From Euglena gracilis (lineage: Eukaryota), in the NCBI GenBank assembly GCA_039621445.1, contig CP154954.1, forward strand, positions 24,068,954 to 24,132,953: a DNA stretch of 64,000 bases, in the 5' to 3' direction. Made by a program: the position numbers and the translations under genes. Each line of letters opens with the position of its first letter. The stretch's first letter is position 1. Shown piece by piece: positions 4,037-61,389 of the stretch. The notes beneath the pieces are model-generated. The model did not search any database, was not told where the DNA came from, and saw nothing but the letters and a program-made list of their open reading frames with translations.

Positions 4037-4044
4037 CACACCTG

Positions 4045-25284: not shown

Positions 25285-25287
25285 ACC

Positions 25288-34249: not shown

Positions 34250-34254
34250 CAAAC

Positions 34255-38790: not shown

Positions 38791-39574
38791 AGATTTTGCC
38801 TTCCAGGTTGTCTGTCTTGTTATTTGTCTGGGTCGCGCAGATTAACCAAGATCAAGGTGTGAGGCTATTCTTATTTTTTTAAGTTTTCTTATTTTTTTGC
38901 GGAATTATTTTTTTTGCATCTGCGTCGTCAGTGGAACCTTTTTGGCCCATGTTTTTTTCTTCGAGAAGTTGTGGAAACATTCATGGAAGACAATTGTCTG
39001 TTGACACCCCATTTGGGGGGGGTGGCGTTCAATGTGCGTTGTCCTCCATTGGGGATGGGCCAAAATTTGGCCACTTTTTCAAAAAAAAATATGAAAAGAG
39101 TCACTTTTTTTTGGCAGTTTTTTTGGGTCGGGATGGAGATTTTTAAAGTTTTTTTTAAGTTGGAAAAATCAGCACAATTGTTTTTGGGCCATTTTGGGCG
39201 TCAAAGAATTTTTGTGACCCCCTGGGAGCCATGGCACGTGCAGTGCATGGGGGGGGGGGTGGCAAATGGGGTCAAACGGCGCGCCTGGTCCCCACAGTTT
39301 GGGTCAGCCATGTTGATCCAAAATTATTGGCGCAAAGTTTCAGAATTTTTTGAGTAATGTGAAAACCCCAGCCCCCCCCCCCCCCAGGGGATGGGGTTCA
39401 GGGGGTGCTGACTCAAAACGTGTCGGAAATTTCCAGTTCCAGTCGGTTTCACCTGACTCAACCTGACCCAAAAACCTTCAAATATTTTTTGGCCAAGAAC
39501 CCCCCCCCCCCGCTTCCATTCAAGGATGTTGTTTCCTTCACTGAATTTTGACGCCATTCGTCGGAAAGGATGGC

Positions 39575-39591
39575 TGTCTTTTTTTTTCCAG
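39575..39591 (+). promoter_or_regulatory. Polypyrimidine tract + AG, candidate spliced-leader trans-splice acceptor
   Basis: tgtctttttttttccag ending 5 nt before ATG 39597. An upstream cis-intron acceptor cannot be excluded. Confidence 0.5.
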
Positions 39592-39596
39592 GTGAG

Positions 39597-39966
39597 ATGG
39601 CTTTCACCGCAAAGCGTGAGCATCACCCAGCATTGCCCCTATACCTTTTAACTAACGCTCTTCTCTTCCTTGCCATCCTCCTTGGATTCATCGCACTGTT
39701 TGTGCCTTGGGCTCAAAAAGACGTCGCTGTTGGTTATCGTGCTTTTTCGTACCCATTCAAGACGTGCTATGTGCCAACAACCAGTCCAGTGCATCAAGAA
39801 ACTTGCATGGACAATGACTTTATTGCTGGCCCAAAGGGAGCTCCTGTGACAGCCGGTGACGCCACTTGCAAGACATTCATCATCACTGCTATCGCCCTGG
39901 GATTTTGCGGAGTGTTTGGTGGATTTTTGGTTTTCTTGTTTCTGATCTGGGTGATCGTCAGGCTTT
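39597..39966 (+). CDS. Exon 1 of a 251-aa tetraspan membrane protein (claudin/PMP22/amastin-like)
   Basis: TM1 ending ALFVPW, Cys-containing loop YPFKTC...TC...TC, TM2 FIITAIALGFCGVFGGFLVFLFLIWVIV. Confidence 0.8.
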
Positions 39967-41233
39967 GGGCAGGCTATTCCCTGCAAGGGACAGGAGCAAC
40001 TCATTCGGACTGTTCCGTTGGTTGATACTCGGAAGTGCATCAACTCCGTTAGTCAATCGGGTATTTGTTCACTGCTCGACCCCCACCCAAAATTTTTCAA
40101 GTCGTCGGGTTATTTGAAGGAGTAGGGTTAGGGCGACATGGCCATGCTCGACGCCCCTTCGACGCCTCACACGCGTCCCCCATGTTTTTAGCCCCAGTTG
40201 GGCAGCTCTTTGGGTTCGCTGGAGACACCAATCTAACAACGTTGAGCGGGAAATGTTCTGCTGTTTGCATAAGAATTGTAACCCCAACCCTGCTCCTTCA
40301 AAGAACGTCAGAAAATCTTTTTGGCCACGGGAAAACACCATCAGCAAACTTTTTTGCCTTTGGTTGGACTGGCGGGGATGCCCCCCCCCCGCACCATACA
40401 TACCATAATAGCCCTTCTTTATGTTCCACAGGGTTTGGCAAGGGTCTGGATGTTTCTGAAATGGAAAACTACAGAAGTCGTTTCAATCGACCACATGGTC
40501 GGCCTGACCACCATTTGGGGGGTGTTACCCCCGCGTCCCCCCCCCGTCCCCCCCCCTCCGCGTCCCCCCCACCCCCCCACGTCCCGGATTTTGGCCGGGC
40601 ACGTTTTTTCGACCAAAGGAAAATTACATACCGGAGGGGAAAAAATTGGATGCCGAAATAATTGATTGGGAAAAAATTGGCGTACAGAAATCCTGCCAAA
40701 TTTTTCCGGGCCTTTTTTGAAAATCCTGCCTCAAAATTTTGAAAATCACCCTTTTCCCAGTCATCTTGCATACAAAACCTGCCAATTTTTTCCGGGCCGT
40801 TTTCAGGTTTGGCACCAATTTTTTCGGCTTCCAATTTTGTCGGGTCTAATTTTATCTAGCTTCAATTCCCCCCCCCCCCCCGGTACAAATTTGGGTGACG
40901 CCAAAGAAAACGTGTGGGGGTGGTTGGTTGGGCCACGGTTCCCCCCCCCGGGTCCCATAACTGATGCCCCCCTTCTGAAGCAGCCAAAACGGGCAGGCAC
41001 ATTGAGCAATTTTGAAATTTTAAAGTTCCTGAGAAAGCCAATCCCCTGAACGTCCAAGTGCAATGAAATTTGGAAGGTGAAATAGGGCTCCGATTCCACG
41101 TCCATACGTCCATACAAAGTTTGGCCAGTTTTGGACATGGGGGGTCATTATGGGGGGTGTAAATTGACAGGGCGCCGGGCAATGCACGCGCGTTGCCTTG
41201 CTGCTTCTTTCCTTTTGTGAGTTGCCTGGTGCT
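39967..41233 (+). other. Euglenid-type non-conventional intron 1
   Basis: T|GGG CAG GCTATTC ... GAGTTGC CTG GTGCT|G. CAG at +4..+6, CTG at -8..-6, complementary ends; the join gives in-frame L-W-Y-R. Confidence 0.8.
40631..40883. mobile_element. Short TIR element flanked by TA (Tc1/mariner-like MITE); related sequence at ~3500-3660
   Basis: ta|ccggagggg...aattg / caattcccc...ccgg|ta. Internal tttgaaaatcctgcctcaaaa...ggtttggcaccaattttttcggctt is shared with 3530-3640. Confidence 0.55.
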
Positions 41234-41454: not shown

Positions 41455-42358
41455 GATCAGGGGCTGGAGCACCGCCTTAAGATTGCAAGCTAACCCCCCC
41501 CCCCAAATAACCTGGCGGGGTGCCAGGTTATTGGAACCAACTTTTGTCCCCCCCCCTGAGCATCATAAAGGAATTTTGCCTATAAAGGGGGGTGCCAAGT
41601 TACTGGAACCATATTTTTTGCCCTTCCCCCCGCCAAGTTATTCGACCCCTGCCACGAGCAAGGACCCCGCCAGGTTATTTGGGGATATTTTTTGCCAGTG
41701 TTTCTGAATTTTTATTTGTTGGCCCAAGCATGCAGTCACTAAACATCATTGGCAGGTGGCCGACGATCCCCCTCACAGGAACAAGAACATGGGGGGGACA
41801 GGCTGCTTCCTTTTTTTTTCATTTACCGCGGAGTACCCAAGGTGATTCCAGGCAAGACATCCAAAGGCCTTTTTAAAAAACTCAGAAGCCCCTCCCCCCC
41901 GAGAAGGATGGGTGGGCAGGCTTGGGAACTGCCCCTCGGGGGGGGGGTGGGGGGACTCAGGGTGCCAGTCCCTTTTCCCGGAGTGTCATGGCTACCTTAT
42001 ATATGTTTGCCCCAAGCCCAAATATTTTTGCCACCCGTCCCTGGTATTTTTGCCACCCCATCTAAATATTTTCGCCTCCCGTGTACACCTTTCTGCCCCC
42101 TGTTCCTTTTTTTTTGCCCCAAAGAGCCACAATGTCCAGTCAAAATGTTTCTGATTCCAGAGCCAGAGGCAGGTTGAAAGGGCATTACAATTTGCTGAAT
42201 GTTGAACACCATTTCTGCTGCATATCAGCAGCGATTTTTTTTACTCAAAGCAGCCTGATTTCTATACAAAAACCGACCGACACAAACAGATTCAGCAGGG
42301 ACGCCGGGCGCGAGCGAAGCGAGCGATTCAGCGCCCCTGCTGAATCGGTCGATTTTTC

Positions 42359-43411
42359 TAAAACCTATTTTGTCTGGGCCCGACGCCTGTCTTGAAATTC
42401 ATTCAACCGAACCGCCTGGACGGAAATATGGCCAAAAAAGTGGTTTTTGGCCCATTGACGGGCGCCTGAATGGAAACCGTTAGACATAAACGGGCGCCTG
42501 AATGGGAATCGACCGACATAAACGGGCGCCTGAATGGAAATCGACTGACATAAACGGATTCCGATGTCATGGAAATCGACCAACCTTTTGTGTGCTTTTC
42601 TGAATGCTTTTTTGTTCCATTTTGGGACATTGTCAATTTCAGCCTGAAGTCCGTTAATGTCGACCTTTTTTCTCATTTTTCTGAATACTTTTTTCTTCCA
42701 TTTTGACAGAATAGAATAATAACAATAGAAATTCCAACACAGGCGTGGAGCCCAGAAAACAGGCTAGTTTTAACAGTTGCCACCCCTCACCAGAAAGCTT
42801 TTCTTTCAGACGACCAACGATGACAACTGAATCGGGCCAAAAAATGATAATCTTAAGTTCCGTCCTTCCGTCCGTTCCATCCAAAATTCAGCCAGCTGTG
42901 ATCACCTGACCCCCCCCTCCAAAAAAATTCATCCAAATATGAAGGAAAATGACTCGAAACCCACCCAAATGCCTTCCAAAACCCCCAACCTGACCACCAT
43001 TGGTCAGTAGCCATGGTCGCTAGCGACCATGGCATGGTCACTAGTCGCTAGCGACCATGGTCGCTAGGGACCAGTCGCTAGCGACGACCAAAAAATATAT
43101 CACCAATTTCCCGCAATCAGTCGCAAAATTTGTTTTTTTGTCTGGTTCATAACGCCTCCAGAACCCCACAGGACCAAAAATGTCGAAAAAATAGGGAAAT
43201 CCAAAATGTCCAAAAGTCACTAAAAATTCCCAATCAGCAACAGATTTCAATGGAATGGAAATCGACCGACATAAACTGGCGCCTGAATGGAAATCGACCG
43301 ACATAAACGGGCGCCTGAATGGAAATCGACTGACATAAACAATTTCAGGCTGAAATCCGTTAATGTCAGCAGAATTTCAAGACAGGCGTCGGGCCCAGAA
43401 AATAGGTTTTA
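42359..43411. mobile_element. Non-autonomous TIR element with ~32-bp internal tandem repeats
   Basis: ~40-bp TIRs taaaacctatttt.tctgggcccgacgcctgtcttgaaattc and its inverse. aaacgggcgcctgaatggaaatcgaccgacat repeats at ~42460-42560 and ~43255-43340. Confidence 0.7.
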
Positions 43412-43539
43412 ACTGGTTTTCGCTTTTGGGTGGGAAAAAAACCGAGATGCTTACAGAGCTGTGAAAACTTCTCTTCGCCCTCCTGTGGCCTTTTTTTGTT
43501 TCAGATTTCCAGATCAGATTTCATTACATTTGTTTCAAC

Positions 43540-44831
43540 GGCTCATTGCGGGAAATTGGCCGTGGAACTTTTGGTGGTCGCTGGCGACCGGTCGCTAGCC
43601 ATGGTCGCTAGCGGCCGTTGGTCACGGTCAACCGACCATTGGTAGTCGGAGCGACCGGTCGCTAGCGACCACCCAAATTTCGACCCCCCCCCCCTCCAGA
43701 AAATTCGGGCCAGGAGGGGGGTGGGACACCCCCCCTCCCCCACCTAAACAGTGGCGCGGTCTGGGTGACCGAAAATTTTTGACCCCCCAAAAACGACCAA
43801 AAGTGCCATTTTGGGCACTTTTTGGCAAAAATGTGCCAAAAATGCAAAAAAAATTCGGCGCAAAGCGCGAAGGAAAAAATTGACCCTTTCAGGGGGGGGG
43901 TCCGGACCCCCCCCCCCCCCACCTGTCCTTATATCGAACCCTGCCCCCCCCCCATTGGGATGTAATACAAAACCCCCGTTGTACTGCAAAACGATGCTAC
44001 CAGGGCCAGACGCTCATGTAATGCCACGCGCACCGTAAACAAAACCGTCCCAAGGCGCCTTCGGCGCCCTTGGTCATCTAGCGGGGGGGGGCCCCCCCCC
44101 CCGCACCCCCCCCCCGCCCTCCAATAACAAAATCCCCTCCGGGGGGTAACCGACCCAGGGCCAGGCGCGCATGTAATGCCACGCGCACCGTAAACAAAAC
44201 AGTTCCAAGGCGCCTTCGGCGCCCTTGGTCGTCTAGCGGGGGGGGCGGGCCCCCCCCCCCCGCCCCCCCCCCCCCCGCCCTCCAATAACAAAATCCCCTC
44301 TGGGGGGAGTAACCGACCCAGGGCCAGGCGTGCATGTACCCTCACCCCCCCCTCCAGGCACCATGGGGCCCCAAAACGGCCACTCTGGGGGAGGGGACAC
44401 TTTGGGGGGGGGGAAAATTTTGGGCTTTGGCGCCAAACGAAAAGGGCCACTTTGAGGGGGGGTGTAAAGCAAATTTGACAAAAAAATTTGGCCACTCTGA
44501 GGGGGGGGTGAGGGTAATGCCACCCACCCCCCCACCCCCACCCCCCCCCCCCACCCCCCCCCCCCGCCTTCCAATGACAAAGTAACGTAAACATTGTAAA
44601 AGCAGAAAAAGGAACTTTTCATATAAAATTTCATGGCTTTCTCTGGGGGAAATTTTTCCTTCACAGGGGGGGGGGGGGCTTAAAAATTTTCTGAGAGGGG
44701 GGGGGTCGAATTTTTGGTGGTCGCTAGCGACCGGTCGCTCCGACCACCAACGGTCGCCAGAATTCGGTCGCTAGCGACCATGGTCGCTAGCGACCACCAA
44801 AAGTTCCATGGCCAATTTCCCGCTCGGAGCC
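43540..44831. mobile_element. Mutator-like non-autonomous element
   Basis: 9-bp TSD TGTTTCAAC (43531-43539 / 44832-44840); long TIRs ggctc...gcgggaaattggcc.tggaacttttggtggtcgct; ggtcgctagcgacc palindromic repeats. Confidence 0.82.
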
Positions 44832-45267
44832 TGTTTCAACAACCCCACCTTTTATTGAAGCGGAAATGCCATTACCACAAAAGCCGATGGACCTTAAAAT
44901 TTGTCCCATTCCAACCTTTCCCAAATGAGTTGCATTCAAGCCCTTTTGGGCTGTTTTCTCAAATGCAATTGGCGGTCAATGGACAATAAAACTCCACAAC
45001 CAACATGTGGTGTTGGGAAAAGTCAAAGGAGTTCTTGGACTTTTCCAAATGCCAAATTCTGGTTGTGGATGATTTTGAGTTCCTCTCTGTCTGAGGAGAG
45101 AATTCTCATGGGTGATTCCGACTTCTTTTGAAGTCATTGGTTTTGAGGCAGTGGGAAAGGGGGGGGCTTCCCCTTCTTATGAATCCGCTTATGACTTATG
45201 TGTTCACATATTTGTGCATTTTTTGTGCGAATAAGTAGTTTGTGTGCTTTACAGAGTGCATGTGTCT

Positions 45268-45660
45268 GTAAACCCCCCCCAAATAATAAACCCCCCCAGT
45301 TTATTATTTGGACACCTGAAGTCAGGGTCCAGGGGGGGGTTTATTATTTGGGGGGGGGTTTATTATTTGGGCAAAATTTTCGAAGGCAAAAATCGGCCCG
45401 AAAACCCCTCCACAGGCTCCAATGGTCACTTTTTTGGCATTTTTGGGCTTTTTTGAAAATTGGGTGCTTTTTTGGCACATTTTCTGCACCAATTTTTTCC
45501 ATTTTTGTGATTTTTTGGCAACATTTCTGTCAATTTTTGACTCTTTTTTTCTTTGGCTTCCCACCTGCTGGAGGGGGGGTTTATTATTTGGGCGGCCGAA
45601 GTCGGTCCTCGGGGGGGTTTATTATTTGGGGGGGGGTTATTATTTGGGGGGGGTTTATTA
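45268..45660. mobile_element. MITE family with aaaccccccc(c)aaataa ends; related copies at ~50207-50400, ~54820-55140 and ~62266-62370
   Basis: Inverted ccccccaaataataaacccccc / ggggggtttattatttgggggg motifs; boundaries approximate. Confidence 0.55.
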
Positions 45661-45795
45661 TTGTTCCTGCACGTGCTGACAATTCGAAACTTGCTGCAGA
45701 GAAATTCTTACAAAATTGAAATTTATAATTGTCAAAGGGCCCAAATATTTTGGGTTCAAGTGGTGCGTTGGTGGATGTGTTGTACATTGTACAAG

Positions 45796-47133
45796 CAGGG
45801 GCAGGGAGATATTCCGGTCCGGAATAAACCGGAATAAACCGGAATAGCGAAAACCGGAATAAACCGGAATAAACCGGAATAACCGGAATAAAAGTGCCAG
45901 CCAATGCCTTGAAAATTTTCTGCAAGACAAAGGCAATGAAGGTGAAGTTTGACATATTTTCAGGTTTCAAAACCACAAGAGCAACAAAGAGCGCAAGTGT
46001 AGCACAATTGGCTCTTGTTATCAGGAGCACACCTTCACTTTGCCTATTTCTCCCCCTGGTTGAATGCATTTTTTGTTTGGATTTTATCCCCCTTGTGGGG
46101 GGGGCTGTGCTTAGGGAATGTTTTCTTCCTGAGTTCCAAAGGGATATGAACCAGGACAATATCAACTCCAATTTTTGGGGCAGGAATCCCATTAAGCAAA
46201 GCGATGCATCCTTCAATCAGGGGGTAATAACACTCTTAGGCGGCCTGACTTGCATTTAAGTTTTGATTTTTGCATTGCGCTTAAGTGCAACGTTGCATTC
46301 TTTTTGAAACCCGGGGTTTCACCCTTTTGGCCCCTGAGGTTCCGTGGGGACCCTCCACGGTGACACGTGCATCATTTGCGTTCTTGGGACCCAGGAAACA
46401 GGCTCTTTTGGTGTTTTTAAGCCTGTGCTCCATTTTAAAGGGTTCAAAACCCCGGGTCTGAACGCCGGGCCACGTGAATTTCCCAAGCTTTAACTGTGTT
46501 CCCCAGATGGTGCTACACAGGCCAGGGGAATTTTGGCCTGTTATGTTGTTGTTTTTTAGACTCTGCGATCTTTCCATGAAGGTTTGCCAGCTGAGGTGTC
46601 CGCTTCGGCGCACAGTTTTAGACCAAGGACAGTGTTGTGGGCCAAAGTTTTAGGGGGGATTCTGGTTTATTCCGGTCAATTTCTGTCTGAATGGACTTAG
46701 GATTTTTTTGAAATGCAATTGGGCCGAGGCGCTCACCCGGGCTTCAGGAATAGGGATGCATTCCTTGGTTGCCCCGTCCAGCCAAGTGGTCACTTCGCAC
46801 TTGGTGATGCGGGTCTGCACACCACAGTAGACCCTGGCCTTTTCAGGAAAAACAAGCTAATGAAAATTGGGTCAACATGTGTTTTCATTGAGCATCTGTG
46901 AATTGCGCACGCTGCATAATGAAAACGCAAGAGTTATATTGCGCCACGGCACAATATAAATACAATTTTTTATGTCAAGAACTGTGTTTGGGCTGAGTTA
47001 AGGGGAGCCCAGGGGTGGGGACCACAGCGCCTTTGCCCCTTCGGCGCAAAAAAATTCCGGAATAAACCGGAATAAACCGGAATAAAACACCGGAATAAAA
47101 TTTTCGGCCGACCGGAATATCTCCCTGCCCCTG
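45796..47133. mobile_element. CAGGG-terminated non-autonomous TIR element
   Basis: 24-bp perfect TIR caggggcagggagatattccggtc; subterminal (ccggaataaa)n. No intact TSD. Confidence 0.7.
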
Positions 47134-47498
47134 ATTTAAGGTTCCACATCCTTTCCCATGCACGTTAGATGCCTTTGCAGCACCAGTGCCTAAAACGTGT
47201 ACCCATTTCCAAGTGCCAAGGGTCCTGGGAGTCCCGGGAGTTGTAATTGCCAGATGTGACGAAAAAAAACGAGGATTAGGGGCAAAGTTAACCAGGTCAA
47301 GGCACGAAAATTTGTAGCAGGGCCGGGGGGGTGAAAGGTTCCTGGCCTGGGGGCAGAAATTAGTAAGGTTAGCCATAAACGAGGAGGGGGGCTTGTCCCG
47401 GACCCCCTCTCTTGGAAAAAACCTGACGCAAACACGAAGCACCAGAAATTTTTTTTGCTGGGGTCGGTGAGGAATTGTGTGGTCCAGAGTCTGTTGCC

Positions 47499-47663
47499 AA
47501 GCTGAAGAATTATCAGCTGCTCTCCCTGGATGAACAAGAGAAGGATATTGATATGGACGTCCAGGCACCCCAAATGGACATTGTTTACCCAGAGTATTCT
47601 CCTCAGGGCGCTGTTCCAACACCTGTTGTCCAGTACCCCACCTACACCCCTGTTATTGACTAG
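47499..47663 (+). CDS. Exon 3 of the tetraspan protein (acidic, Pro/Tyr-rich cytoplasmic tail)
   Basis: KLKNYQLLSLDEQEKDIDMDVQAPQMDIVYPEYSPQGAVPTPVVQYPTYTPVID*. Total CDS 370+221+165 = 756 nt. Confidence 0.72.
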   Translation, partial: KLKNYQLLSLDEQEKDIDMDVQAPQMDIVYPEYSPQGAVPTPVVQYPTYTPVID

Positions 47664-48328
47664 TATGTGTGCTTTTGCATTGTGTTGAAGCGGGTGTTTC
47701 TCTGGGGTGGCTGAAAGTTCAGAAGGCAAATTCCTGGGTCCCCTCAAAAATAACCCTGGGGGGGTCCCGGGCCAGTGTGGGTTTTGGCGCGAAGCACTGA
47801 AAAATCTTTGGGAAATGGCCTTAGACGGCCGATTTGGGGGGGGGGACCCGGGGGGGGGTCCCACGCCGGGCTGGGGTGGGTTTGACCCTCCCCCGGTTCT
47901 TAAAGCCCGGGTCTTGAAGCCTGCAGGGGGGGGGACTGCAGGTCCCCCCGCCCCCTCCCCATTTCTCTTTCGCCATTCCTGTGTGTCAATATCTCAACGC
48001 GATGAAGTCCTGATTTTTGGCAGACTATTTTTCAATATTCAATGCAACAGTCAATTTAACACAACGTTTTACAATACGCTTTTTTTTGAGTGAATGAATC
48101 CAATCCTACTGCAGCTCAATTGGCAAGGCGTCTGTTTTCTGAAACAAATGTTTTGGAATCTGTTTGTTTTCATTGGTCTGATTTTTTTGGCAGTTGTGTT
48201 CAACTGTTCAATCAGAAAATATTTCACATTAATTTGCAACCCATTTGTAATGTGCTTGATGATTCTTCCTAATTGTTTTCAATGGTGCGTTGTGTTTTGG
48301 GGAGGGGACAAAATTTGGTCAAAAATAA

Positions 48329-50003
48329 GTGCCTGTTGGGGTTCAAACCGGGGCCAGCAAATGTGGAATCCTAAGTTTTGGTTACCTTAGCCTCCGGGGA
48401 GCCTCCGCGGAAGCCTCTGTGGAGGCTGGTTACCTTGGAGCCTCCGCGGAGGCTGGTAACCTTGGAGCGTCCGCGGAGGCTCCTCGGAGGGAACCACTGT
48501 TGTACAACCACTGTTGTACACAGGCCATGTCTGAAAATAGGAAAAATATTTTTACGGGTTGACGCCAATCTCCCTCCACACCCCTTCCTCCTGTTCCCCA
48601 CACTACTGCCCAGAGGAAGAGGAATTTTATTTTAATTTTTTCTCCCCCATCTCCACAAAAAAAACATTTTCCCCCATTTTTGCTGTGTATCCCCCAAAAA
48701 ATTTAAATTTTTTTAGACTCCAACACTGCCCACATCGCCACAAAGAACAAAGCTTTTCGCCCTCTCACACGCACCCATCCCCTCCATTTTCCACAAAAAG
48801 CGATTTCCATTGATGTGGTACAGACCGTTCACCCATTTTGCCGTTTACGCCATGTCCGCCAAACTTGTTGAAAACCATTCATCCATTTGATACAAAAACG
48901 CCATGTCCGCCTGATTTTGCTTTTACCGTTTACCGATTTGCTATTGACGCCATGTCCGCCAAACTTGTTGAAAACCATTATCCATTTGCTACAAAAACGC
49001 CATGTCCGCCTGATTTTTGCTTTTACTGTTTACCCGTTTGCTATTTACGTCATGTCCGCCAAACTTTGTCCACACAAAAGGATGTTGTCATTGGGGAGCG
49101 GGGGAGGGGGGCAGGGGGGAGAGGGGAAGGGGGGAGAGGGGGGGGGCGCGGGTGGGGGGGGGGAGGGGGCCGCAGGCCCCCTCCCCCCCCGGCAAGCACA
49201 AATGGACTCCACTTTGGGTGTCACCTGACCTTTTTTTTTTTTGCAACATCACATCCATGCTGACGTGCAGTTTGCTACCATCACCCCCCAAGTGACTGTT
49301 GGTTCACCTGGTGAAAACATTCAGTGCAATCCAGGATTAAAAGTTGTGGCAAATCCCAGTGGGATCACAATCTCAGGTACAATTTTGGCCTCTGGATAAT
49401 TTAGGTATTATTCTGGCTGAATAAATTCATTTTCGGTTTTGTTTAAGCTCAATGTTGCCTCCCAAAGTCCGTGAATTTCTTTACGTCTGTTAGTCTGGGA
49501 ATTAGTCCGTGAAGTAGTCCGTGAATGATTTTCCCCTCTGTGCAAATGGGCAGCAGATGATCTGCCACTGAGTGCAGTCACCGTGTTTGACATTGAAGAA
49601 TGTTTCTCTTTATAATACAAAAAAACAAACAAACAAACAAAAAAATTCCTGTTCAGTTGTATGTTCCCAACATGCTCCTGCAAAATTGGTTACCTTGGCC
49701 TCCGAGGAGCCTCCTCGGAGCCTCTGCGGAGGCTGGTTACCTTGGAGCCTCCGCGGAGGCTGGTTACCTTGGAGCCTCCGCGGAGGCTGGTCACCTTAGC
49801 CTCCGCAGAGGCTGGTTACCTTAGCCTCCGAGGAGCCTCCACAGAGGCTGGTTACCTTGAGCCTCCGCGGAGGCTCCGCGGTGCCTCCCCGGAGCCTCCT
49901 CGGAGGCAACCAAAAAGTTAGGATTCCACTTTTGCGGTAGACCCGTTCAAACCCAGGTTTTCCGCGTGACGGACAGAAGCTCTATCCACTGAGCCACAGT
50001 CAC
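48329..50003 (-). pseudogene. tRNA-like sequence (tRNA pseudogene or SINE head, Asp-like GTC loop) split by a Mutator-like insertion: 50003-49954 + 48349-48329
   Basis: Rejoined 71 nt: gtgactg tggctcagtgg atagagc ttctgtccgtcacgcgga aaac ctgggtttgaacccc aa caggcac, with A box, B box and an imperfect acceptor stem. Confidence 0.5.
48350..49944. mobile_element. Mutator-like non-autonomous element
   Basis: 9-bp TSD GTTCAAACC (48341-48349 / 49945-49953); TIR core gcaaa.gtggaatcctaa; subterminal gagcctccgcggaggctggttacctt repeats (related motifs at ~50065-50180 and ~63630-63730). Internal cgccatgtccgcc repeats at 48845-49065. Confidence 0.8.
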
Positions 50004-53000
50004 CTGCTTCTTCCACGTTTCTACTGAAATTTCTCTAACATAATTCTAAACGCCGTGACAAATTGGTCACCTGAGGCTCCGGGAATTCCCCCAGAGGCTG
50101 GTGACCCTTCCTGGAGCATCCCGGAGCCTCTATCCAGGTAACCTCCTCGGCAGGATTCCATTTTTGCGGCAGACCCGGGTTATCCAGCCATTCCTCTCAT
50201 TGTGAGTAAACCCCCCAAATAACACCCCCCCCCCCCGGTGTGTTATTTGGGCACCCGAACTGGGGGTCCAAGGAGGGGTGTGTTATTTGGGGGGGGGGGT
50301 TATTTTTACAGGGAAACCCAAAGGAAAACAGGGGGGGGGGGTTCTTTGGGCGCTCGAAATCGGCCCTAGAGGGGGGGGGGGGTTATTTGGGGGGGTTTAG
50401 TCCCCCCAAGGGAAATTATCGCCATTGAACGAACTCAGCATTGATCAAAGCCTGGAAACTACATTTAAATATCAAACCTGTCATTCAATGGTTTCATTTT
50501 ATTCTCAGATGGAGAAGATGGGAGCATTCACTGGTTGTTTTATGGGCAACAGCGACGATTCGAACCGGATGCTTCTGCGAAATTCACATTGCATTGGACA
50601 GGCATTATGCCATTCTTTTTGCGAAGTGAGTTCCTGCTGTCCAAATCTGCAAGGACGTGTCTCTCACAGACAACAAACAAACAAACACAACCAGCCACAA
50701 GAGATTTCTGTTTCATTTCTTTCTTCTGCTTCTTTTTTGAAAGTGGAATGTGCCACCCGACTTTCCCAGGTTTTGAGAAAAGGAGGGAGTCACGGCTTTG
50801 GATGAGGGGTTCGGACGATACCAGTGCGTCTGACCCTGGGTGATTGACTGGTGTTTTTTGTGGTCACTCTGCTGGTAGGTGGGGGTTGACCCCCACCTGG
50901 GTGATGGGTCAACCTCCTCCCCCACACAGCTTTCCCAACAGCCCTGTCCTGGGGGAAGGACAGAAAGGAAGGGGCGAAAGTGGTGAACCGGTGCCAAAGG
51001 CGCTGGGATTTTCTTTGGGACAGATTCATCTAACACCCATGACCCCCCCCACCGGGGGTGGGTGGGCTTTTGAGAGGGGGGGGGGTTTCGGGTTGCTTTG
51101 TGGGTCAGAACACCGGGGGGGGGTGAGGGGTCCCTGGCCACTCACCACGCAGCAAACTGGGCCAGAAGCGAAGTTAGCGCCGGCCATAAACAGACAAGAA
51201 GCCTTAGTGCAACTAAGGGGGGGGGGGAGGGGTCCGGGTCCGGGCCAGAGGTCCAAGTATGGTTTTTGGCGCAAAGCGCCGAAAATTTTCTGGGGAAGTG
51301 CCCAAATGGAGGGGGGTCCTCCATGGGAAACCTGGGACCAGGGTTCGATATATGGTTCCCCCACCCCCTCCTGGACTGGAATGGGGTTCCCCCCACCTGC
51401 AGGGAATTTCTTAAAGACCCCCCGGGAGGGTCCAGCCTATCCATCAAAATGTCGAGAAGGCAAAAATGGTTTAGAAAATTTTGTTTTTCATCGACCCAGC
51501 CCAGCCCCCCCCCCCAGCCCCGGACCGCGTTTCCAGCCAGCAGCCTTTTTGCCAGCCGGTGGAGTTGGATCAAGGCTGGGGGGCTGTGATGGAGGAAGCT
51601 GTGATGAGGGGAAGAAATGCAGGGATAGGTGAGCTGGGCAGCCCAGTTGGCTCGCCAGCCTGCAGCCGGCTGGCCCGGCCTCCGAGTAAAATAAAGTTGT
51701 GTCCAGCCCGGCCTCCAGCTGGGCTGGACCCAATTTTATTTCACTCGACCCCCGGGGGGGGGGCTCCCAGTCGGAGTTTGGGCTGCTGGCTGGATTTGAG
51801 CTGCTGGCTGGCTGGACCCCCCCCCTCCGGGGATAGGGTACCCTCCGGCTTAAGAAATTCCCTGCCCACCTGCCTTTGCTTTGAACCCTGCCTGGCACCC
51901 CCCAAGAAAGTTCTTTTTGATGCAGTGTGCCAAACATTTTGAGCAATGTGGCAAATTTCTTTTTCAAAATGTGCCCGAAATTGCATTTTGGGTCAATATT
52001 GTGCAAAAAGTTTGGGCCATGCCACTGTTTTGGTTGGGGGTGGCAGGGTTTGGCGTAAGGAGTAAGGCAAAATTCTTAAGGTTTTTATGGTGTTTTTAAA
52101 GGTTTTTTTGAAGGGGTTTTTAGACATTTCAAAAAATTTAAGTACTTTTATGGCGTCTATTTTCCAAGGGCGGCCAAAGAGCCATCCAGGCATTGAACCA
52201 ATGTTGGTCCTTTTTGAGTTTTTGGGGGGATAGACAGTGTTTCAGCGGTGCAGAAATCCTTGATTGTTTTTGCCGAGATTTTTCAAGTTCTTTTTTTGCT
52301 CAAAATTCGAACGTTTGTCGTGGACGAATTATTTTATGGTTTTTTAAATTTTTAAGGCCTTTTGGTCAAATTTTTTTTGAGGGTTTTTGAGGGTTTTTGA
52401 TGGCGCCTTAAAAATAATGCCTGCCTCCCACCTGCCAAGGGGAATCCTCGGAAGACACCCCCCAGGGGGGCAGAACGGGAATTGGCCACCCCCCCCCCCC
52501 CACCAGGCCACCATACCGGGCAAGAGGCCCAGGTTCGGGTTTCCCATCGGCGCGAAGCGCTGGAAAGTTTTTGGTAAATGCCTTTGAACGGCCCGATTTT
52601 GGGAGGGGGATCCTGTCTTAAAAAGAAAAGAAAAGAGGTCTTAAAAACAAAGCCTGGTCCGGCTCGACCCGGGACCGGTTGGGGGTCACCAGGACTCTCC
52701 AAAGGGCAGAGCCTCCTCTGTGCTTGCTCATCCAGAAAATGTTTTGATAAAATTCACAATTTTTTTTTGGGATTTTCAGCTTGTTATTACACAAAGTGAA
52801 ACCCGTGGAGGCCTGGCGCTTCACACAAGTCCAAAAAATCGGTCATCTGATGTTTGGCTGAGGGGGGGGGGTGTCCGGGAACCCCGATAGAACCAAATTT
52901 TTTTCTTCCCCAGCGCTTTGCGCTGGCAGACTTATGTTTTTATTATCTGTTTTGTCAATTTGGAGAAAAGGCCACCTGGAAAGGCAATTCTGGGCACTTG

Positions 53001-56000
53001 TTGAAGCCCCTCAAAATATTTTTTTCCAGCGCTTTGAGCTTTTTTTTTTCACCCAGGGGGCAGGGGGGGGTCGACCCCCCCCCCAGATCCAGGACCACCC
53101 CCCTCCCCCTCCCCCTTACCCTGCAGGTGTCCCGGACCTGTCTTCCTTCCCCCAACCGGGCTTAATTTTAAGGCGTGGCCACCCGGGGGGGTTCCTGGCG
53201 GGGGCTTTTTTTTTAAGCTGGAGGGGACCCCGCCCCCGGGTTCGCCGGGCTGGACCGAAAAAAATTTCGGCGCAAAGCGCCGAAAATTTTGGAAAGAAAG
53301 GGGCCAAAAATGACCAAAAATGCCCCCAGGGGGGGGGGGGCAGCCAGCATCTTTTTTTCCAGTTGGCACCTTTTTCCAGCTGGCCCGAGGGATTCCCCCC
53401 CTGGCACCTTAAGAAAATCTCTGGTTTTTGGGCAGGCACTCCAAGGCACCAAGGCACCAAGATCTGGCCCCCGGGGGAGGCCACATAGCAAAGTCGGCCC
53501 AGGCACTTCCGGTGCCGAAGGTGCTGGAAGCCCAGAAATGGCACGTATGTGTATTTAGGCATTTGAAGCAATGCCACCTGTGATGACCAGAGGTGTTTCC
53601 TGCTGCAAAATCAAAAGATTCTACAATTGGGGCCCAATTTTTCTGCAAATGCAATTTCTTGGCCAAAAAGTCCCAAAATAACAAAAAAAATCAAAATTGT
53701 TTGATCTTTTGGCCAATGAATAAATAAATTGAATGTTTTTGAATGAGCACGTTCCAAAAATTCATCCAAAAATACATCAAATCATGATCAAAACGTTGAA
53801 AATTCGTATTTTTTTCCTCGCAAAATTGGGTGCAAAATGCATGCAAATTTTTTTGTTGTTTTGTGCATTTTTTTCCACAAGAAAGGACAAATGCATTTCA
53901 AAAAAAAACACCATATCGAAACATGCACATATGTTGCATAAACTGTAATGCTGCATGTTGAGAAAAAATCGCTGGAGTTTTTTTTTTGGAAGTCTTGCAC
54001 ATCCCAGCATTTCCTGAAGGAATTCACATTGCGCGGCTTTGTGTTTATTTGCGAATTTGCATTTACGCTTTTTTTTGTTTTTTTGCGTCGCTTTTTTCTT
54101 GGGTCTACGTTGTCCCTCCCCCCTGCTCTGAGCGATATTCAAATCTTCCTGAAACTGTAGATGATATAGAGTGCCGGAAAATCAATACAAATCATTTGTT
54201 GTGGAAAAAAGGTTAAATAAATGCCCAAAAGGGCCCAACCCAGACAATTCTTCGCAGTCTGAAAGAGTCACGGAAAATCATTAATGACAATCAGGAATGA
54301 ATCAGAATGTCATTCCAAGGTGTTGCAGGAAAGCATTTCTCTCCATAAACTCCAAACTAATTTGAGTTGTACAATACAAGTGAAGCACTGTCTTCTGCTG
54401 CATGTCTCTTTTGGCAATATTGAATGTTTTTCTGGGTTTGATAGGAGGACAGCAAGTGGCTTGGTTTTTTTTTGAATTCACGATTGAGGTGACCCATCGT
54501 TGCCTGCCAAGAGCAAAGACAGTCACTGTGTCTAAAGAGAGTCGTTGTGTCTAAATTTGATGGCAGTTGTGGAAGATCCCCTCCGGCCCTGAATTCTCAT
54601 TTTGCACGTGACAAAAATGGTGATTCAGGGCTCAGTGCAGGGCAGCTTGGCCAAAGTAGTTGTTATGGGCAACAGCTTTTGATGGTCTGCACCATGCTGT
54701 GGAGAAGCACGGCTGTACGGGAATCCCCAACCCTGTCAGTGGTGGGTGAGGGGATTGTCCCACCACCATCCTGCTGGGTAGGGGGGGGCCCCCCCCCCCC
54801 CCCCGCCAGACCTTCCCGTAAACCCCCCCGCAAAATAAGACCCGGGTCTTATTTTTTGGGTCCGTTGCTGGAAACCTCCAGGGGGGGTCTTACTCTGGGG
54901 GGGGTCTTATTATTGGATTTTTTCTTGACCGACCAGGGCCTGAAAAAACAGCATTTTTCAGGTTCCCAAAAATATTAAATTTTTTTCTTTTGGCGTTTCG
55001 CGCCATGTGCAAATTGGCGTAAGTTGACATTTAGCATGTTTTCACCGTCTTCGGCGCTTCGCGCCGTCAGGGGGGGTCTTATTTTTGGATTTTTGCTCGA
55101 TCGGCCCAGGGGGGTCTTATTTTGGGGGGGGGTTATTTACTTTTGGCGTCGAAGGAATTTTTCCTCGTGGTGCGTGAGGGGGTCAATCCCCTCACCAGGC
55201 TTTTCTGCACAGCCCTGTGGACAAGTGCCCCCCATTTGTATTTTTAAAATTGTTTGTCGTTCATCCTGGCTTTGGTTTGTTGGCAATTTTGGTTGTGTTT
55301 TCAGGCAGTGCCAGGGGGAAAGATTTTTTTTCGTGACCCCGGGGGGGTGTCCGAACTGAGTTTTCTTCTTTTCAATGCTTGAAATTTTTGACCCAAAATG
55401 GACTTGGGGTGGGTGGGTCGGTCCAGACTACCATGTGTGGGGGGGGTGACTTGGTTTTCTGATGACTTTTTTGGCCAATGGTGGATTGGGGTGGGTGGGT
55501 CTGGCCAGCCAACCATTGGATTTTGAGACTACCCCCCACCCCGGGGGGGGGGGGGGGGTGACTGATTGGTTTTTTCACAGTGATTGACTGGTTTTCTGAA
55601 AGACCCCCCCCCCCGGCCGGGGGGTGGGGTTGAAAAATGAAAAGTGGCTGGCCTGGGGGCGCGGGAAATTTTTTGTGAGACGGCAAAAGTTTTTTGCAAA
55701 AGAGTGGCTCCGGGGGGGGGCGTGATTCCTTTTTTGGGAAAAAGTGGTTTTTTTTCCAGTACCCCCCCCCCCTCAGGCATTTGGGTTGCAGTACCCCCCC
55801 CCCCCTTGCCTATTTCTAATGACCCCCCCCCCGCTCTTAGCTTTGGGCCCCAAAAATCCCCTGCGCGCTTTTTATTTTTTTTTGGAAAAAATCCCCAGCC
55901 CCTGCTGGTTTTCCCCCCACAGCCAAAAAATTTTTCCTCCGGACCCCCCCCTGACCCCCCCCCCCATTTAGTTTTTCCAGTCTATTGGCTAGCTAGCCAA

Positions 56001-57532
56001 TCCAGCACCCCCCCCCCCCCCCGGGTCCTTGAGAAAATCCGGGCCCCCGCCTCCCCCCTGCGGTCGCTAAGGAATGGTATGGTCCTGACCCCCCCCCCCC
56101 TGGGTCCTAAAAAAAACTTCTGCGGGAGAGGGGGATTTGCTTGGCCTGGTTTTGTGGGGGGTGCAAGACGCTGCAATGTTCCAAGGGTGTGACATTTTGA
56201 TCCAGGGGGTGTGTCAGCAACACATTTCGAAAAATGCATCTAATTTTCATTCCAATTGGCGGAATGTGCAGCTGACATGGACCTTGGACCAATGGGGGGG
56301 AGAAGCAATTCCCCCCATCCAAGGTGCATTATGTCGTTGAACACACTCCTCATCCCATGGCATTTTTTCTGAATTACTGTGATTTTGGGACCACTTCATT
56401 GTCGACACCCTTTGGTCAGGGGGGGATTTCATCCTAAACCCCCTTTTTGTTGAGGTGTGTTGGCATATGCTGCCCTGGCGTTTGCCCGGAAGGGCTGAAC
56501 TGCTTGCTGCACGCCATTGTTGTTTGGGGATTGACCTGTCAGCTTCAACCAAGTGTTCGGACGAACTCCGGAAACTGCGCAGGTGGTCTGTGGATGACAT
56601 GAAAGTACCTCAGAAAAAGTAAGGTTTTTCATTTATGTTTTTTTTGCAGGCTTTTGTTTTATTTGCTGGACGCAGAAAAAAGCTATAAAAAGGGACTAGC
56701 TAGATCCCTTCCCAGGGCCTGACTGCAAAAGAAAAACTTCCTTCGGTGCTGTGTGCCAAGGTGGAAATGAGGGTTTAAAAGCGAGCCCCCACCATTGCTC
56801 AGCGAGCCTGGGGGGGAGCAGGGGGGGGGTCACTTTTCACTCTGAAAAAACCAGTCAGTCACTTTTTCCCATAAAAGCCAGTCAGTCATTTTACCCCCCC
56901 CCCCCCCGGAGGGGATCGGCCACTCTGGAATGATGAGGAGGCAATGAACATTTGCCAAAAAGTCTCAAAAAATCCAAAAAAATTCCGGCGCCGGCTCAAA
57001 GCGCCGGGCCGAAAATCAGTTGCCGCTGTTCCCCAAAATTGTTCAGGTGGGGTGGAGGTCCCCCCCCCCCCCACCTTCTGGACTGGAGGGGTCCAGACCC
57101 CCCACCTGCCCTTATATCGAAGCCTCGTCCCGACCCCCCTTGACTTTTGGGGTGGAACCCCTTCCTTCCCAAAAACAACAGCAATAAAAATCCCCTTTTC
57201 TTCACTTTTGAGCATATTCGACTTTGATGTTTTGGTGTTTTCCAATAAAATGAGTTGAAAATATTCAAAAAATGAGCATTTTGGCTAATTTTCGAAAAAT
57301 CAGGGATTTTCCAACAATTTGGTCTGGCATTCAGGCTTTTGCCGGTCCATAAGTCCGAAAATTTTCCCGGCCCCCCTTCAGTTTCAAGGTAGGAGCCCCC
57401 CCCCCCCCAAGGTTTCCCATGCATCCCTGCACCCGGGGGTGTTAAAAGGAAGCCTGACCCCGGCCCCGGGGGGGGGGGGGGGTCTAGCTGCTCCATTTTT
57501 TTTCGGTGTCTAGCAAAATCGGACCTCTGGGG

Positions 57533-57928
57533 CAGGGTTTGATATAAGGAGGGCGTACATGGTTTAGGTGGGGGGGGTGTCCCCCTCCCCCCCCCCCCCC
57601 CCTCCTGGCCCGCAGGGGGGTCCGGACGACCCCCCCCCCCACCTGCCAGGGGGGTCCGGACCGACCCTGGGGGGGTTCCCGGGACCCCCCCCCAAAAAGG
57701 GTCAATTTTTTCCTCTGGCGCTTCGCGCCGAAATTTTTTTGCATTTTTTGCACATTTTTGCCCAAAAAGTGCCCAAAATGGCACTTTTGGTCGTTTTGGG
57801 GGGTCAAAAATTTTCGGCCCGGCGCTTTGCGCCGGGCTGAAATTCGGTCACCCAGACCGCGCCACTGTTCAGGTGGGGGGGGGGGTCCGGACCACCCCCC
57901 CCCCCACCTGTCTTTATATCGAACCCTG
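57533..57928. mobile_element. hAT-like MITE (396 bp); related pieces at ~43720-43945, ~56950-57125 and ~62480-62795
   Basis: Perfect 8-bp TSD CTCTGGGG (57525-57532 / 57929-57936); TIR cagggtttgatataa / ttatatcgaaccctg. Confidence 0.85.
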
Positions 57929-58728
57929 CTCTGGGGTCTTTCAGCAACAGCCTGTTTACAAGACCCCTGACCAGGAGTGTGGGTTTAAGAAATTTAAAGT
58001 GCCGACCATTTTCAAAAAAAAAAAAAGGAAATGGCCCAGGAATATGAGCAGGGGGAGGAAAATGCAGATTTGTAGAATTTGCATCTTGTTGCAAAATGTT
58101 GGTAATCGGCATTCTTTTGGAGAATAAAATATTATTTTTTGTATTTTTTGCAAAGTTCGAATGACTTGGGCTATTCATCCAAGTTCAGGGCTGGGAGGTT
58201 ATTGCTCGGAAAAAGTTTTTTGGGTATTTGAGGGCAAAAAATCGCATTGTATTTGTCTTTAACAGATTGGATAAAATGTCGAAACTTTTCTTCCGGCACT
58301 GAAAATACCCCCCCCCTCATTTTCAAGTATGTTGCCAATTTTATGATGTTTGGGTATTTTCCACAAAAACAAACGCAAATACACAAATTCACTTTTTTTC
58401 AGTGCCCAACTCTGGAAAGCCAAAAACCTTGTCCATGAAGGTCAGAAACTTGTCCAAGAATCCTTTCTTTTGGAGTTGTTATGGCCAGGGGGGGGTTGTA
58501 TTCTGATTTCCCAGTTTGTCAAAAAGTTTAAGTCTGCACCTTTTGGCGCGTCATTTTGATTTATTTTTATTCATATTTGTTTTGTTTTGTTTTTTTTGTA
58601 TATTTTGAAAAAGTATGCAAGAAACTCTTTTGCATCTTTTTTAAAGAGGGAAACAAACAAAACCCAGAGTTTAAGAAAGCGTCAATAATGATGAAAAAGG
58701 AGGCTGTTATTTCATGTCCTGTCCAACC

Positions 58729-59013
58729 CAGGCTGTGCCGACCCCACCCCGGGGGGGGGGGTGCCTGCCTGGGCAGGCACTCCAAGGCACTCCTGATCCG
58801 ACCCCCCCCCCGGGGGGCACACGGCCAAAAGTGCCCCAGCACAGACCCCGGCGCCTTTGGCGCCGGGGAGCCAAAAAAATGGCCTATTTTCAAAGGAATA
58901 TGCCTGGGCACAGGCCGAAATCTGACCACGGGGGGGGGGGGTAGTGCCTGCCTGGGCGGGCACCCCAAGGCACTCCGGACTCCCCCCCCCGGGGTTGGTA
59001 AAAAAACAGCCTG
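58729..59013. mobile_element. hAT-like MITE (285 bp)
   Basis: TIR caggctgt / acagcctg; 8-bp TSD gtccaacc / gtccgacc (1 mismatch). Confidence 0.65.
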
Positions 59014-60558
59014 GTCCGACCTGGTGGGGGCATTTCTCAAGGGGCCCCCTTTGTAGGGTCGATATTAGAAGGATGTGCGGGGTGGAAGAAGGGTATCCCC
59101 CCACCTGCTTTTGCATCGAACCCTGAGGCACCACATAGGGGGTGCACTCAAATAAAGGCCAGCTCAGCCCGGCTTTGTCGAGACAACAGGCTTGGTGAAG
59201 GTTTTTTTTGCCAAAGAGTGGTGTTTCTGAGGGGGTTTCAAGGTTCTCTGAAAATCCCCCTAAGTGTAGGTGCACCAAAATCCAGCTGGGTTGGGGACCC
59301 AACCCAGCTGGATTTGGGTGCACCCCCACCTCCGAGGGTTTGATGTAAGGAGAGTGTGCACGGCGTTCACCCCCCAGGGGAGGGGTGAACATTTGGAATC
59401 CCCACAGGGCAAGAATTTTCCTTCGGACATTCCACGCCGAATTTCTTGCAGCAATTTTCCGAGTGTCTTTTTGCCCCAAAGGTGCCCAATTGCATTTTGG
59501 AAAAGTTGAACCCCGAAGTCCACAAAGTTGCAGGATTCCATTCAGGGCAGATGGGAAGTGGTCCGGCCTGGACGCCCAGCCCTCCCCCAACACCCAGGAA
59601 CCATTTTTGAAGGCGAAACTCTTCAAGGTTTTCTAAGGATTTTTCAGGCACATAATTTTAAGGCGTAATTTTCCAAGTTTGTCTCCTTTATGTTCTTTGT
59701 CAATGCTGGAGTTTTGTTGGAGTTTGGGCTAACGGGAGCGCAGAGACAAGTTTTTTTTGGCCTTGAGACCAGGCCTCTGTTTAAGGGCTCGAAGGGGTCT
59801 AGCTTGTGGGTGGTCTGTTAGGCTTCGAAGCCTGATTGGGACAAATAATTTGGGCTTATGGTGTCTTGGTTTTGGGTGTTTTGGGTGGGTGTGGTCAATT
59901 TATGTGAACTGGTTTCACCATTTCCGAGGACAGTTGGTGTCATGGTGATTGGAGCTGTCACTGCTCGTGAAATACTGTTTGTTGAGGCCAGGCTTCCTCT
60001 TCATCAATCATAAGGCATGGAATATTTCAGTCCATTGTTGCAATTTCAAAAATTGCGTTGCAAAAATCATCACCAAACCGATCTTTTGTGCGCTTTGCAG
60101 AATTCCAATTTGATTTGATTTGTTTTGCAAGTGCATTCCAAAAGTCCAAAACAGAAAGCATTTCATTGGCTTCACGAATAAAGTCAGTGGAGAAATTGAA
60201 ATCTGCAATTTTCCTGCAATTTCCCGCAATTCCGCAATTTTTCCGCATGAATCTGAGATGGAAGATGAAATGAGTTCCGGCATTTCTTGAACGTTTCACA
60301 AGGGAACCCAGGTGCTTTTTTTGTTATTTTGTTGCAAATTTGCCAAAATTTGCCAAAATTCACAAATTTTGAACAATATTGGCAATTTCTGTGCCCTTTT
60401 TAGGATTTTCCCTAATTTTTGCTGGAAATAATTTCGACTTAAATTTTTTTGCATCCTGGACCAGATTTTACCTCAGACCAAAGATTTCGGCAATTTTTTT
60501 TTGCCAATTTTGGATTTTTCACCCAAGAAATTTTGCATTTCCAGATCCATGCATGATC

Positions 60559-61389
60559 CAGGGTTTTTCACCGGTTCGTGCCACGAACAATCACGAACAA
60601 TCACGAACCAGCACGAACTTGAGATTTTGGCAAAATCACGAACAATCACGAACCATCACGAACAATCACGAACCTGATTTTTTTTGGTCACCCTTGCAGA
60701 AATGTCTTCTTCTGAGAATGACGGTGTTGTTCAATCAACCAAACAGAAAAGATAATGGAAGAGAGGTGGAAAAATGACTCCTCAAAAGCGTGCCGCCCAA
60801 GTGTCATACCTATCTTGTTTTTATTTCCCCCCTTTTGGCACGTTTTCCAGTTTGGTGGAGTGATGGAAGTGAGAGGTTTGGAAATGTGGTGCAGTGTTTG
60901 CCATGTTTCAGTGCACTGGGCTGAGAACACACATGCAAAGCAACATATTTCATTGTCAACTCACAAGGACAACCTCTTTCGCAAACCAAAGATTGTGGAA
61001 ACACCTGGTCTGAATTGATGAATGCACCCAAAGGGGCCCAGGCACAGGAAGGGGGGGGGGTCCCGCGGGACCCCCTGTCGAGTTCCGAACTCAACCAGAC
61101 AAGGGGGGAAGGGGGGTTTGGGACCCGAACTCGACTGCCTCCAAACGTGGTGGTATTTTGTTTTTTTCAATACATATTTTTGTATTTTTGCTTTCCCCAT
61201 TAACCTAAATATTTAGATTAAAAGAGACACAAGAAGCCAAAGTACAAGAGGAAACACCAATTTCGCCGAGGAAAACAGAAAACCGGGCGGTTTTTTGGAA
61301 GCACGAACAATCACGAACAATCACGAACAATCACGAAGAATCACGAACTGGATTTCAGGCTTCCTAGCACGAACCGGTGGTAAACCCTG
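60559..61389. mobile_element. CAGGG-terminated TIR element with (cacgaacaat)n subterminal repeats and a zinc-finger coding remnant
   Basis: TIR cagggttt..caccggttcgtgc / gcacgaaccggtg..aaaccctg. Flanking direct repeat catgatc (7 bp; 9 bp if the terminal C/G is assigned to the target). Confidence 0.75.

Follow-up and report, generated by a model that had tools for sequence, protein, structure and literature searches.

hAT-like miniature elements of Euglena gracilis fit the nonconventional splicing code and may be a source of nonconventional introns

Introduction

The origin of the nonconventional introns of euglenids and the mechanism of their removal have been a question for ∼30 years. Here we consider it at one locus of Euglena gracilis, a stretch of 64,000 nucleotides (hereafter, the window) corresponding to positions 24,068,954–24,132,953 of contig CP154954.1 in assembly GCA_039621445.1; all coordinates below are those of the window. 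Positions 57533–57928 hold a short element that starts with CAG, ends with CTG, and is bordered by two copies of an octamer. Could elements of this kind, when they land in exons, become nonconventional introns? An earlier reading of the same DNA, made from the sequence alone, had proposed that they could, as such introns start 3 nt before a CAG and end 5 nt after a CTG, and these offsets add up to 8.

An origin of nonconventional introns from MITEs (miniature inverted-repeat transposable elements) was proposed by Milanowski in 2014, with no euglenid transposon then known (PMC3935182), and was restated by Nomura in 2025 (PMC12501133). A 2024 review draws the CAG and CTG at +4..+6 and −8..−6 as terminal inverted repeats (TIRs), calls the frequent repeats at the junctions similar to target site duplications (TSDs), and describes a pyrimidine|purine tendency at both junctions (PMC11282704). 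The sequence-only reading, which described the idea of a mobile-element origin as one put forward in general terms, understated this review, which labels both TIRs and TSDs. We found no paper naming hAT, an 8-bp TSD or the sum 3 + 5 = 8 for Euglena in open-access full texts and bioRxiv. Judged by these texts, the link between hAT elements, the 8-bp TSD and the sum of the offsets appears to be new; the MITE origin, CAG/CTG as TIRs and TSD-like repeats have been published already.

The element at 57533–57928

The element is 396 bp long, non-coding, and has CAGGG...CCCTG termini. Its TIR comprises 17 bp, of which 15 match (left, CAGGGTTTGATATAAGG; right, as reverse complement, CAGGGTTCGATATAAAG), and the flanking octamers are identical (Table 1). 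The same family is represented by diverged copies or isolated ends at 43713–43943, 51339–51890, 59097–59125, and 62541–62796. Together with its 8-bp insertion duplication, the region 57525–57936 is very probably a MITE, that is, a non-autonomous DNA transposon, of the hAT type in its structure.

The cis code of nonconventional splicing in Euglena has been given as 5′-N3CDG...CH′GN5-6|R with paired ends; in knock-in mutagenesis, the 5′ spacer of 3 nt had no tolerance, while the 3′ spacer of 5 nt could be extended by one (PMC12501133). If an element is flanked by an 8-bp TSD, abcde|fgh-CAG...CTG-abcde|fgh, this code places the cut between the fifth and sixth bases of each TSD copy, and the element is lost together with 8 nt. 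In the case of 57533–57928, this means the loss of 404 nt and rejoined ends CTCTG+GGG on the plus strand or CCCCA+GAG on the minus strand; both have a purine after the cut and restore the empty site. The sequence-only reading had claimed exactly this outcome for either orientation, and the claim holds, with offsets that agree with the mutagenesis data. The excised RNA would begin with GGGCAGG, as does the predicted first nonconventional intron of the neighboring gene (39967–41233), again as had been claimed.

The motif, pairing and purine rules hold in 8 of 14 element/orientation combinations of the seven elements considered: in both orientations for 57533, 58729, and 45796, and on the minus strand only for 51400 and 51339. 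With CAA/TTG at one end, the element 2572 does not match the motif, and 60559 violates the purine rule. The terminal duplexes of the MITEs, with energies from −15 to −54 kcal/mol, equal or exceed in stability those of the real nonconventional introns (−18 to −28 kcal/mol); the value for the conventional intron is −5.6 kcal/mol. A copy like 57533, placed in an exon, would more likely than not be spliced out.

The element 57533–57928 itself coincides with no supported or predicted intron. The last exon with RNA support runs from 56483 to about 56620, and the element sits ∼0.9 kb farther downstream, in DNA that is barely transcribed, where the RNA depth consists mainly of poly-C/G reads with loose ends. 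The joint 57529/57934, expected from its removal, is absent among the 15 joints listed of 1405 RNA joints, and the same is true of joints excising any other MITE; with depth of ∼0–5 in the MITE bins, this result is uninformative either way.

Chance controls for the target site duplications

We scanned the window for inverted repeats with any termini (at least 11/14 matches, 50–6000 bp apart, non-palindromic flanks). An exact 8-bp TSD was found in 2 of the 5749 candidates, each of them a CAGGG element; in 30 simulations with a block-wise Markov model, there were 0.13 exact TSDs on average and one at most. Among the CAG..CTG pairs with TIRs matching in at least 8/10 positions (n = 1745), an 8/8 TSD occurred twice in the proper register and never in any of eight shifted registers. 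By contrast, 7/8 TSDs alone do not exceed the chance level (6 real vs. 3.87 simulated), so the elements 58729 and 51339 depend on extended or family-level TIRs.

Similarity to hAT elements

An 8-bp TSD and YARNG termini, CAGGG among them, are stated as hallmarks of hAT elements (PMC3014272), and the Ac/Ds elements have C/TAGGGATGAAA ends and a TSD of 8 bp (PMC3260210). The window contains at least six elements of the CAG...CTG type with 8-bp TSDs, 57533 included. The TSD is 8/8 in 57533, 2572, and 51400, and also in 60559 with a one-base ambiguity of the end; it is 7/8 in 58729 and 51339, and 45796 has 3/8, that is, no TSD. Six of the seven elements start with CAGGG or CAAGG, both matching YARNG. 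The TIRs are 8–24 bp long. Thus, by structure alone, the elements look hAT-like. They share with maize Ds1 (PMC3260210) and with lizard hAT-N elements having CAGGGGTCC.. TIRs (PMC3014272) the 8-bp TSD, CARGG (YARNG) termini, short TIRs, the non-coding nature, and the size of 0.3–1.5 kb.

Other elements and features of the window

The coordinates of all features are collected in Table 1. The three MITEs named in the sequence-only reading (57533–57928, 58729–59013, and 2572–4036) have the ends, TIRs and TSDs described there, with the respective TSD matches of 8/8, 7/8, and 8/8.

Table 1. Transposon-like elements and host-gene features in the 64,000-nt window (read counts are given in the order X21/X22/X24)
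Feature	Position	Strand	Evidence
1465-bp non-autonomous element, CAAGGTTCGGC..GCCGAACCCTG	2572..4036	.	TSD and ends
Predicted first coding exon	39570..39966	+	Open reading frame (ORF) continuity only
Predicted nonconventional intron GGG-CAGGC...GCCTG-GTGCT	39967..41233	+	ORF continuity
Nonconventional intron GAT-CAG...CTG-TTGCC, 6044 nt	41455..47498	+	Loose-end RNA reads
1338-bp element, perfect 24-bp TIR (CAGGGGCAGGGAGATATTCCGGTC)	45796..47133	.	Inside host intron 41455–47498
Conventional GT..AG intron	47663..50508	+	Joint 47662>50509, reads 370/386/51
Nonconventional intron, GAA/TTC instead of CAG/CTG, 3/5 geometry	50620..54344	+	Joint 50619>54345, reads 308/315/86
Member of the 57533 family reduced by deletion to 79 bp; 552 bp including nested insert	51339..51890	.	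Family TIRs
465-bp MITE	51400..51864	.	TIR window 14/14 (CAGGGAATTTCTTA) and 8/8 TSD
144-nt nonconventional intron AGC-ACTGTCTT...AAGACAGT-CACT	54384..54527	+	Listed joint 54383>54537, reads 201/222/43
Nonconventional intron GTG-CAGGGCAGC...GCTGCCCTG-GCGTT	54635..56482	+	Joint 54634>56483, reads 253/254/55
Left TSD copy CTCTGGGG	57525..57532	.	Read from sequence
MITE with CAGGG..CCCTG ends	57533..57928	.	TIR 15/17, family copies
Right TSD copy CTCTGGGG	57929..57936	.	8/8 identical to left copy
285-bp MITE, CAGGCTGT..ACAGCCTG	58729..59013	.	8 exact terminal TIR bases
∼830-bp element, CAGGGTTT..AAACCCTG	60559..61389	.	Flanking repeat

The MITE 51400–51864 is a nested insertion. Its TSD, CCCACCTG (51392–51399 and 51865–51872), belongs to a subterminal motif of the 57533 family, and the MITE is nested in a member of this family, 51339–51890, having inserted into this very motif. 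The octamer is single in the family copies whose ends are at 57928, 43943, and 59125, and these provide an internal empty-site control. The enclosing element has the TSD CCTGGGAC/CCTGGCAC, and both lie within the host intron 50620–54344.

The TSD of 58729–59013 is GTCCAACC (58721–58728) and GTCCGACC (59014–59021), and that of 2572–4036 is CACACCTG (2564–2571 and 4037–4044). The latter element has CAA at the left end and CTG at the right one, carries tandem repeats, and adjoins a fragment of a reverse transcriptase gene from an element resembling long interspersed nuclear elements (LINEs). In 60559–61389, a flanking repeat of 7 bp abuts CAG and CTG, extending to 8 bp (GCATGATC, 60551–60558 and 61389–61396) when a single terminal base is assigned to the flanking DNA. 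The element 45796–47133 begins with CAGGGG and has subterminal CCGGAATAAA repeats. Like 57533, the elements 58729 and 60559 are downstream of the last supported exon, while 51339/51400, 45796, and the family copy at ∼43.9 kb are all intronic.

Several further candidates were considered. A search for partners of the solo TIR ends (43943, 52044, 59125, and others) found none. A metagenome scan with the family TIR returned 118 loci, none of which extends past the pattern (at best, 9 of 15 further bases); we regard these as chance matches. One DNA contig of the run X1 skips 45786–47133 (1348 nt), its shorter flank being 21 nt, and could mark an empty or excised site; this candidate was dropped, as the flank is too short and too repetitive. 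We also considered 2572–4036 as an exonic insertion. Homology to reverse transcriptase stops at 2549, and none resumes after 4044 (tblastn with the LINE ORF of the window), so restoration of the ORF by removal of the element could not be shown. In addition, the interior of 2572–4036 shares 91% identity with a 136-bp stretch of the predicted intron 39967–41233, at 40695–40830.

The host gene and its introns

Three RNA runs (X21, X22, and X24, picked by the species label) and one DNA-contig run (X1) were aligned to positions 43201–63200. They reveal a plus-strand gene at 39.6–56.6 kb. Its introns with RNA support are one of the GT-AG type and four nonconventional ones; 39967–41233, outside the region with aligned reads, is a predicted fifth nonconventional intron. 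The gene was recognized from RNA reads only; it could not be located from the sequence, as the screen by GC content of third codon positions and the scan for N3-CAG..CTG-N5 with ORF continuity (416 candidates) were too noisy. Its product is a small multi-pass membrane protein, and the exons match no Pfam family.

The intron 41455–47498 was defined from reads that start at 47499 with an unplaced 5′ part (603/530/85 in X21/X22/X24), since the 30-nt consensus of these parts is exactly 41425–41454. None of the DNA contigs carries any of the four supported joints. For the intron 54384–54527, which has a perfect 8-bp stem and 3/4 spacing, we infer the 3′ end at 54527/54528 from the loose-end consensus and the variant at 54534–54536. 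These three positions read AAA in the window and GGG in the DNA-contig run; the spliced RNA has GTGTCTGGG, and ∼69 reads of X21 that cover the site show A, which suggests two expressed alleles or paralogues.

The exact N3-CAG...CTG-N5 layout is seen in 41455–47498, 54635–56482, and the predicted 39967–41233, which starts with GGGCAGG and finishes with CTGGTGCT. Hence, of the two host introns to which the sequence-only reading had assigned the 3-nt and 5-nt offsets, one (41455–47498) now has RNA support, and the other, its intron 1 (39967–41233), is predicted from ORF continuity. The layout with paired ends is the one reported for euglenid nonconventional introns (PMC3935182, PMC4770533, PMC12501133), of which 41455–47498 and 54635–56482 are RNA-supported examples. 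Unlike these local introns, 57533–57928 is one of a family of repeats and is bordered by a perfect 8-bp duplication; it is in no detected transcript.

Three side observations concern the transcripts. The host ORF has a stop codon TAA assembled over the GT-AG junction (TA|A, 47660–47662/50509), and at least four spliced exons lie past it, namely 50509–50619, 54345–54383, 54528–54634, and 56483 to about 56620. Therefore these later exons appear to form a 3′ untranslated region holding one conventional and three nonconventional introns. The intron 50620–54344 contains conventional-looking sites, GTGAGT 5 nt inside the 5′ end (50625–50630) and TTGCAG 16 nt inside the 3′ end (54323–54328), which are unused by the reads. 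Finally, each of the three RNA runs has many molecules that start or finish at 62957–62962, next to an A>T difference at 62963, as would be expected at the boundary of a separate transcript or of a processed RNA.

Retroelement surroundings

Positions 1–39 kb are mostly occupied by Ty3/gypsy and LINE-like material. There are near-perfect large inverted duplications (∼12867–14590 vs. 17020–18729 and ∼22603–25115 vs. 26004–28569) that involve Ty3/gypsy-type copies with protease, reverse transcriptase, RNase H and integrase ORFs, in this order, at 8.1–13, 18.3–24 (minus strand), and 26.6–33 kb. The LINE-like family is present as four fragments, 34142–35155 (+), 36372–38819 (−), 1896–2549 (+), and 25281–25985 (+), in which an RVT_1 domain precedes a C-terminal region that is Cys-rich and endonuclease-like.

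Do nonconventional introns originate from hAT-like MITEs?

The proposed mechanism would work as follows. By the code, one cut lies 3 nt beyond the TIR end on its side, and the other cut 5 nt beyond the opposite TIR end. With a TSD of 8 bp, both cuts would then fall at the same offset in each TSD copy. The RNA would lose the element and exactly one TSD copy, which restores the pre-insertion sequence. MITEs of the hAT-like kind that land in exons would be born as precisely spliced nonconventional introns and could be a major source of them.

Published data on a young intron bear on this mechanism. Intron 4 of gapC, present in one strain of E. agilis only, is described as the sole documented recently gained nonconventional intron; its junctions carry direct repeats of eight nucleotides, the longest among the introns analyzed there, and the authors explained them by double-strand-break repair (Milanowski 2016, PMC4770533). 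Eight-nucleotide repeats are what the TSD model predicts for a young intron.

Introners provide a parallel. In Micromonas pusilla, other algae, fungi, and dinoflagellates, MITE-like ends and the TSD give the splice sites, and one TSD copy is spliced out along with the element (PMC11282704), as proposed for the elements of the window. Introners differ in that they use the spliceosome and GT/GC-AG sites, with a 3-nt TSD in M. pusilla (PMC11282704), whereas the pathway proposed here would be non-spliceosomal and measured along the helix, with both cuts within an 8-bp TSD. The introns of Amoebophrya and Fritillaria borealis, too, are non-GT-AG, have inverted ends and TSDs, and are attributed to transposons; their TSDs are 3–5 nt long, and the termini and lineages are other ones (PMC11282704). 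A further precedent comes from the hAT superfamily itself. In the work of Giroux et al. of 1994, an exonic Ds element of maize was reportedly removed as a de novo intron, by splicing said to be spliceosomal and imprecise.

A number of observations weigh against the derivation of the introns from hAT-like MITEs. The identity between the two TSD positions is 4, 2, 1, 0, and 2 of 8 in the five local nonconventional introns, one of them predicted (4/8 in 39967–41233, 2/8 in 41455–47498, 2/8 in 54635–56482), so that the mean is 1.8 with 2 expected by chance; the sequence-only reading had itself given 4/8 and 2/8 for its two introns, and we recomputed the same values. None of the local nonconventional introns has a direct repeat at the joint, and no element of the window coincides with an intron. 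Intron ends and MITE TIRs have only CAGG(G) in common. Two of the five introns (50620–54344 and 54384–54527) lack CAG/CTG, one has a 4-nt 3′ spacer, and 54635–56482 is followed by T rather than by a purine. The tolerated 3′ spacer of 5–6 nt (PMC12501133) weakens an exact sum-of-8 rule. By our own arithmetic from the same paper, ∼93% of conventional and 69% of nonconventional introns are slidable (PMC12501133); the share being higher in conventional introns, sliding is not specific to nonconventional ones. The hAT assignment also has its difficulties. Unlike the hAT families compared, the window has no cognate transposase among the 33 ORFs scanned, in which Pfam finds only retroelement domains (reverse transcriptase, protease, RNase H, and integrase); 58729 starts with CAGGC and thus departs from YARNG; and none of six TSDs combines a T in the second position with an A in the seventh, the weak NTNNNNAN-type target preference of hAT elements (PMC3014272, Table 1), a soft feature at n = 6 (CTCTGGGG, GTCCAACC, CACACCTG, CCCACCTG, CCTGGGAC, and GCATGATC).

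Several of these observations fit a simple coincidence. In that case, the elements would be ordinary hAT-like MITEs with ends generic for the superfamily, the introns would come from break repair (Milanowski 2016) or from conventional introns by drift, and only the geometry of the splicing enzyme would stand behind the 3/5 offsets. The chance-level identity, the two introns without CAG/CTG and the tolerated N5-6 spacer all agree with this. So do the ends of the nonconventional introns, which are single-copy (X1 contig depths of ∼150–170 at 53509–53886 and 56125–56849) with repeats confined to the interiors; the MITE copies are intronic or intergenic, in a window with one gene. Moreover, noncanonical introns that are structured and have G/C-rich inverted ends are reported from diplonemids as well (PMC12621601). 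Yet a coincidence would need three chance matches to hAT elements, namely, the CAG/CTG termini, the sum of 8, and the eight-nucleotide repeats of gapC (PMC4770533), and the MITEs of the window satisfy the full experimentally defined code in the 8 of 14 cases given above. We consider it rather unlikely.

The match might also have arisen by filtering. The 3/5 ruler would then have come first, and CAG..CTG insertions, being precisely removable, would survive in genes; elements would indeed become introns, yet the offsets would hold no record of the TSD. The intron 50620–54344, with its 3/5 geometry and GAA/TTC, suggests that the machinery reads a helix rather than a transposon end, and CGG-CCG and CTG-CAG variants are spliced too (PMC12501133). 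This leaves unexplained why adding the two offsets gives the TSD length of the very superfamily that has the same motif, and we find such filtering improbable.

The explanation that we favor, if by a little, is that the element is a hAT-type MITE fitting the splice code and that such MITEs give rise to nonconventional introns; whether MITEs of this family type are a main source of these introns seems to us an even question. For the claim of the sequence-only reading that hAT-like elements are the introners, the anatomy, the fit to the code and the gapC repeats speak in favor, while no MITE of the window coincides with an intron and the local identity is at chance. The derivation of introns from such elements is plausible and, from this window, unproven; the outside evidence favors it more than the sequence-only reading knew.

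Implications

In its full form, which we put forward tentatively and hold at somewhat less than even, the reading is that nonconventional splicing would be an RNA-level system of precise excision for hAT-type MITEs, with a ruler measuring the CAG...CTG helix. Every exonic insertion, in either orientation, would be born as a perfectly removed intron, the free CAGGG families of the window would be the living source of the nonconventional introns, which make up ∼72% of introns in E. agilis, and the eight-nucleotide repeat of the gapC intron would be a hAT TSD and not a scar of break repair. This is a sharpened, testable form of a known hypothesis and not a new kind of system.

The window offers concrete candidate source elements and a quantitative rule, with identical outer octamers and sliding that ends at 8. 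The rule makes the MITE hypothesis quickly testable genome-wide, and it suits the existing GSL2 knock-in assay. If the hypothesis is false, the elements are ordinary MITEs. If it is true, the splice offsets of 3 and 5 would have their reason explained, and euglenids would provide a second, mechanistically different case of intron generation by transposons on the genome scale.

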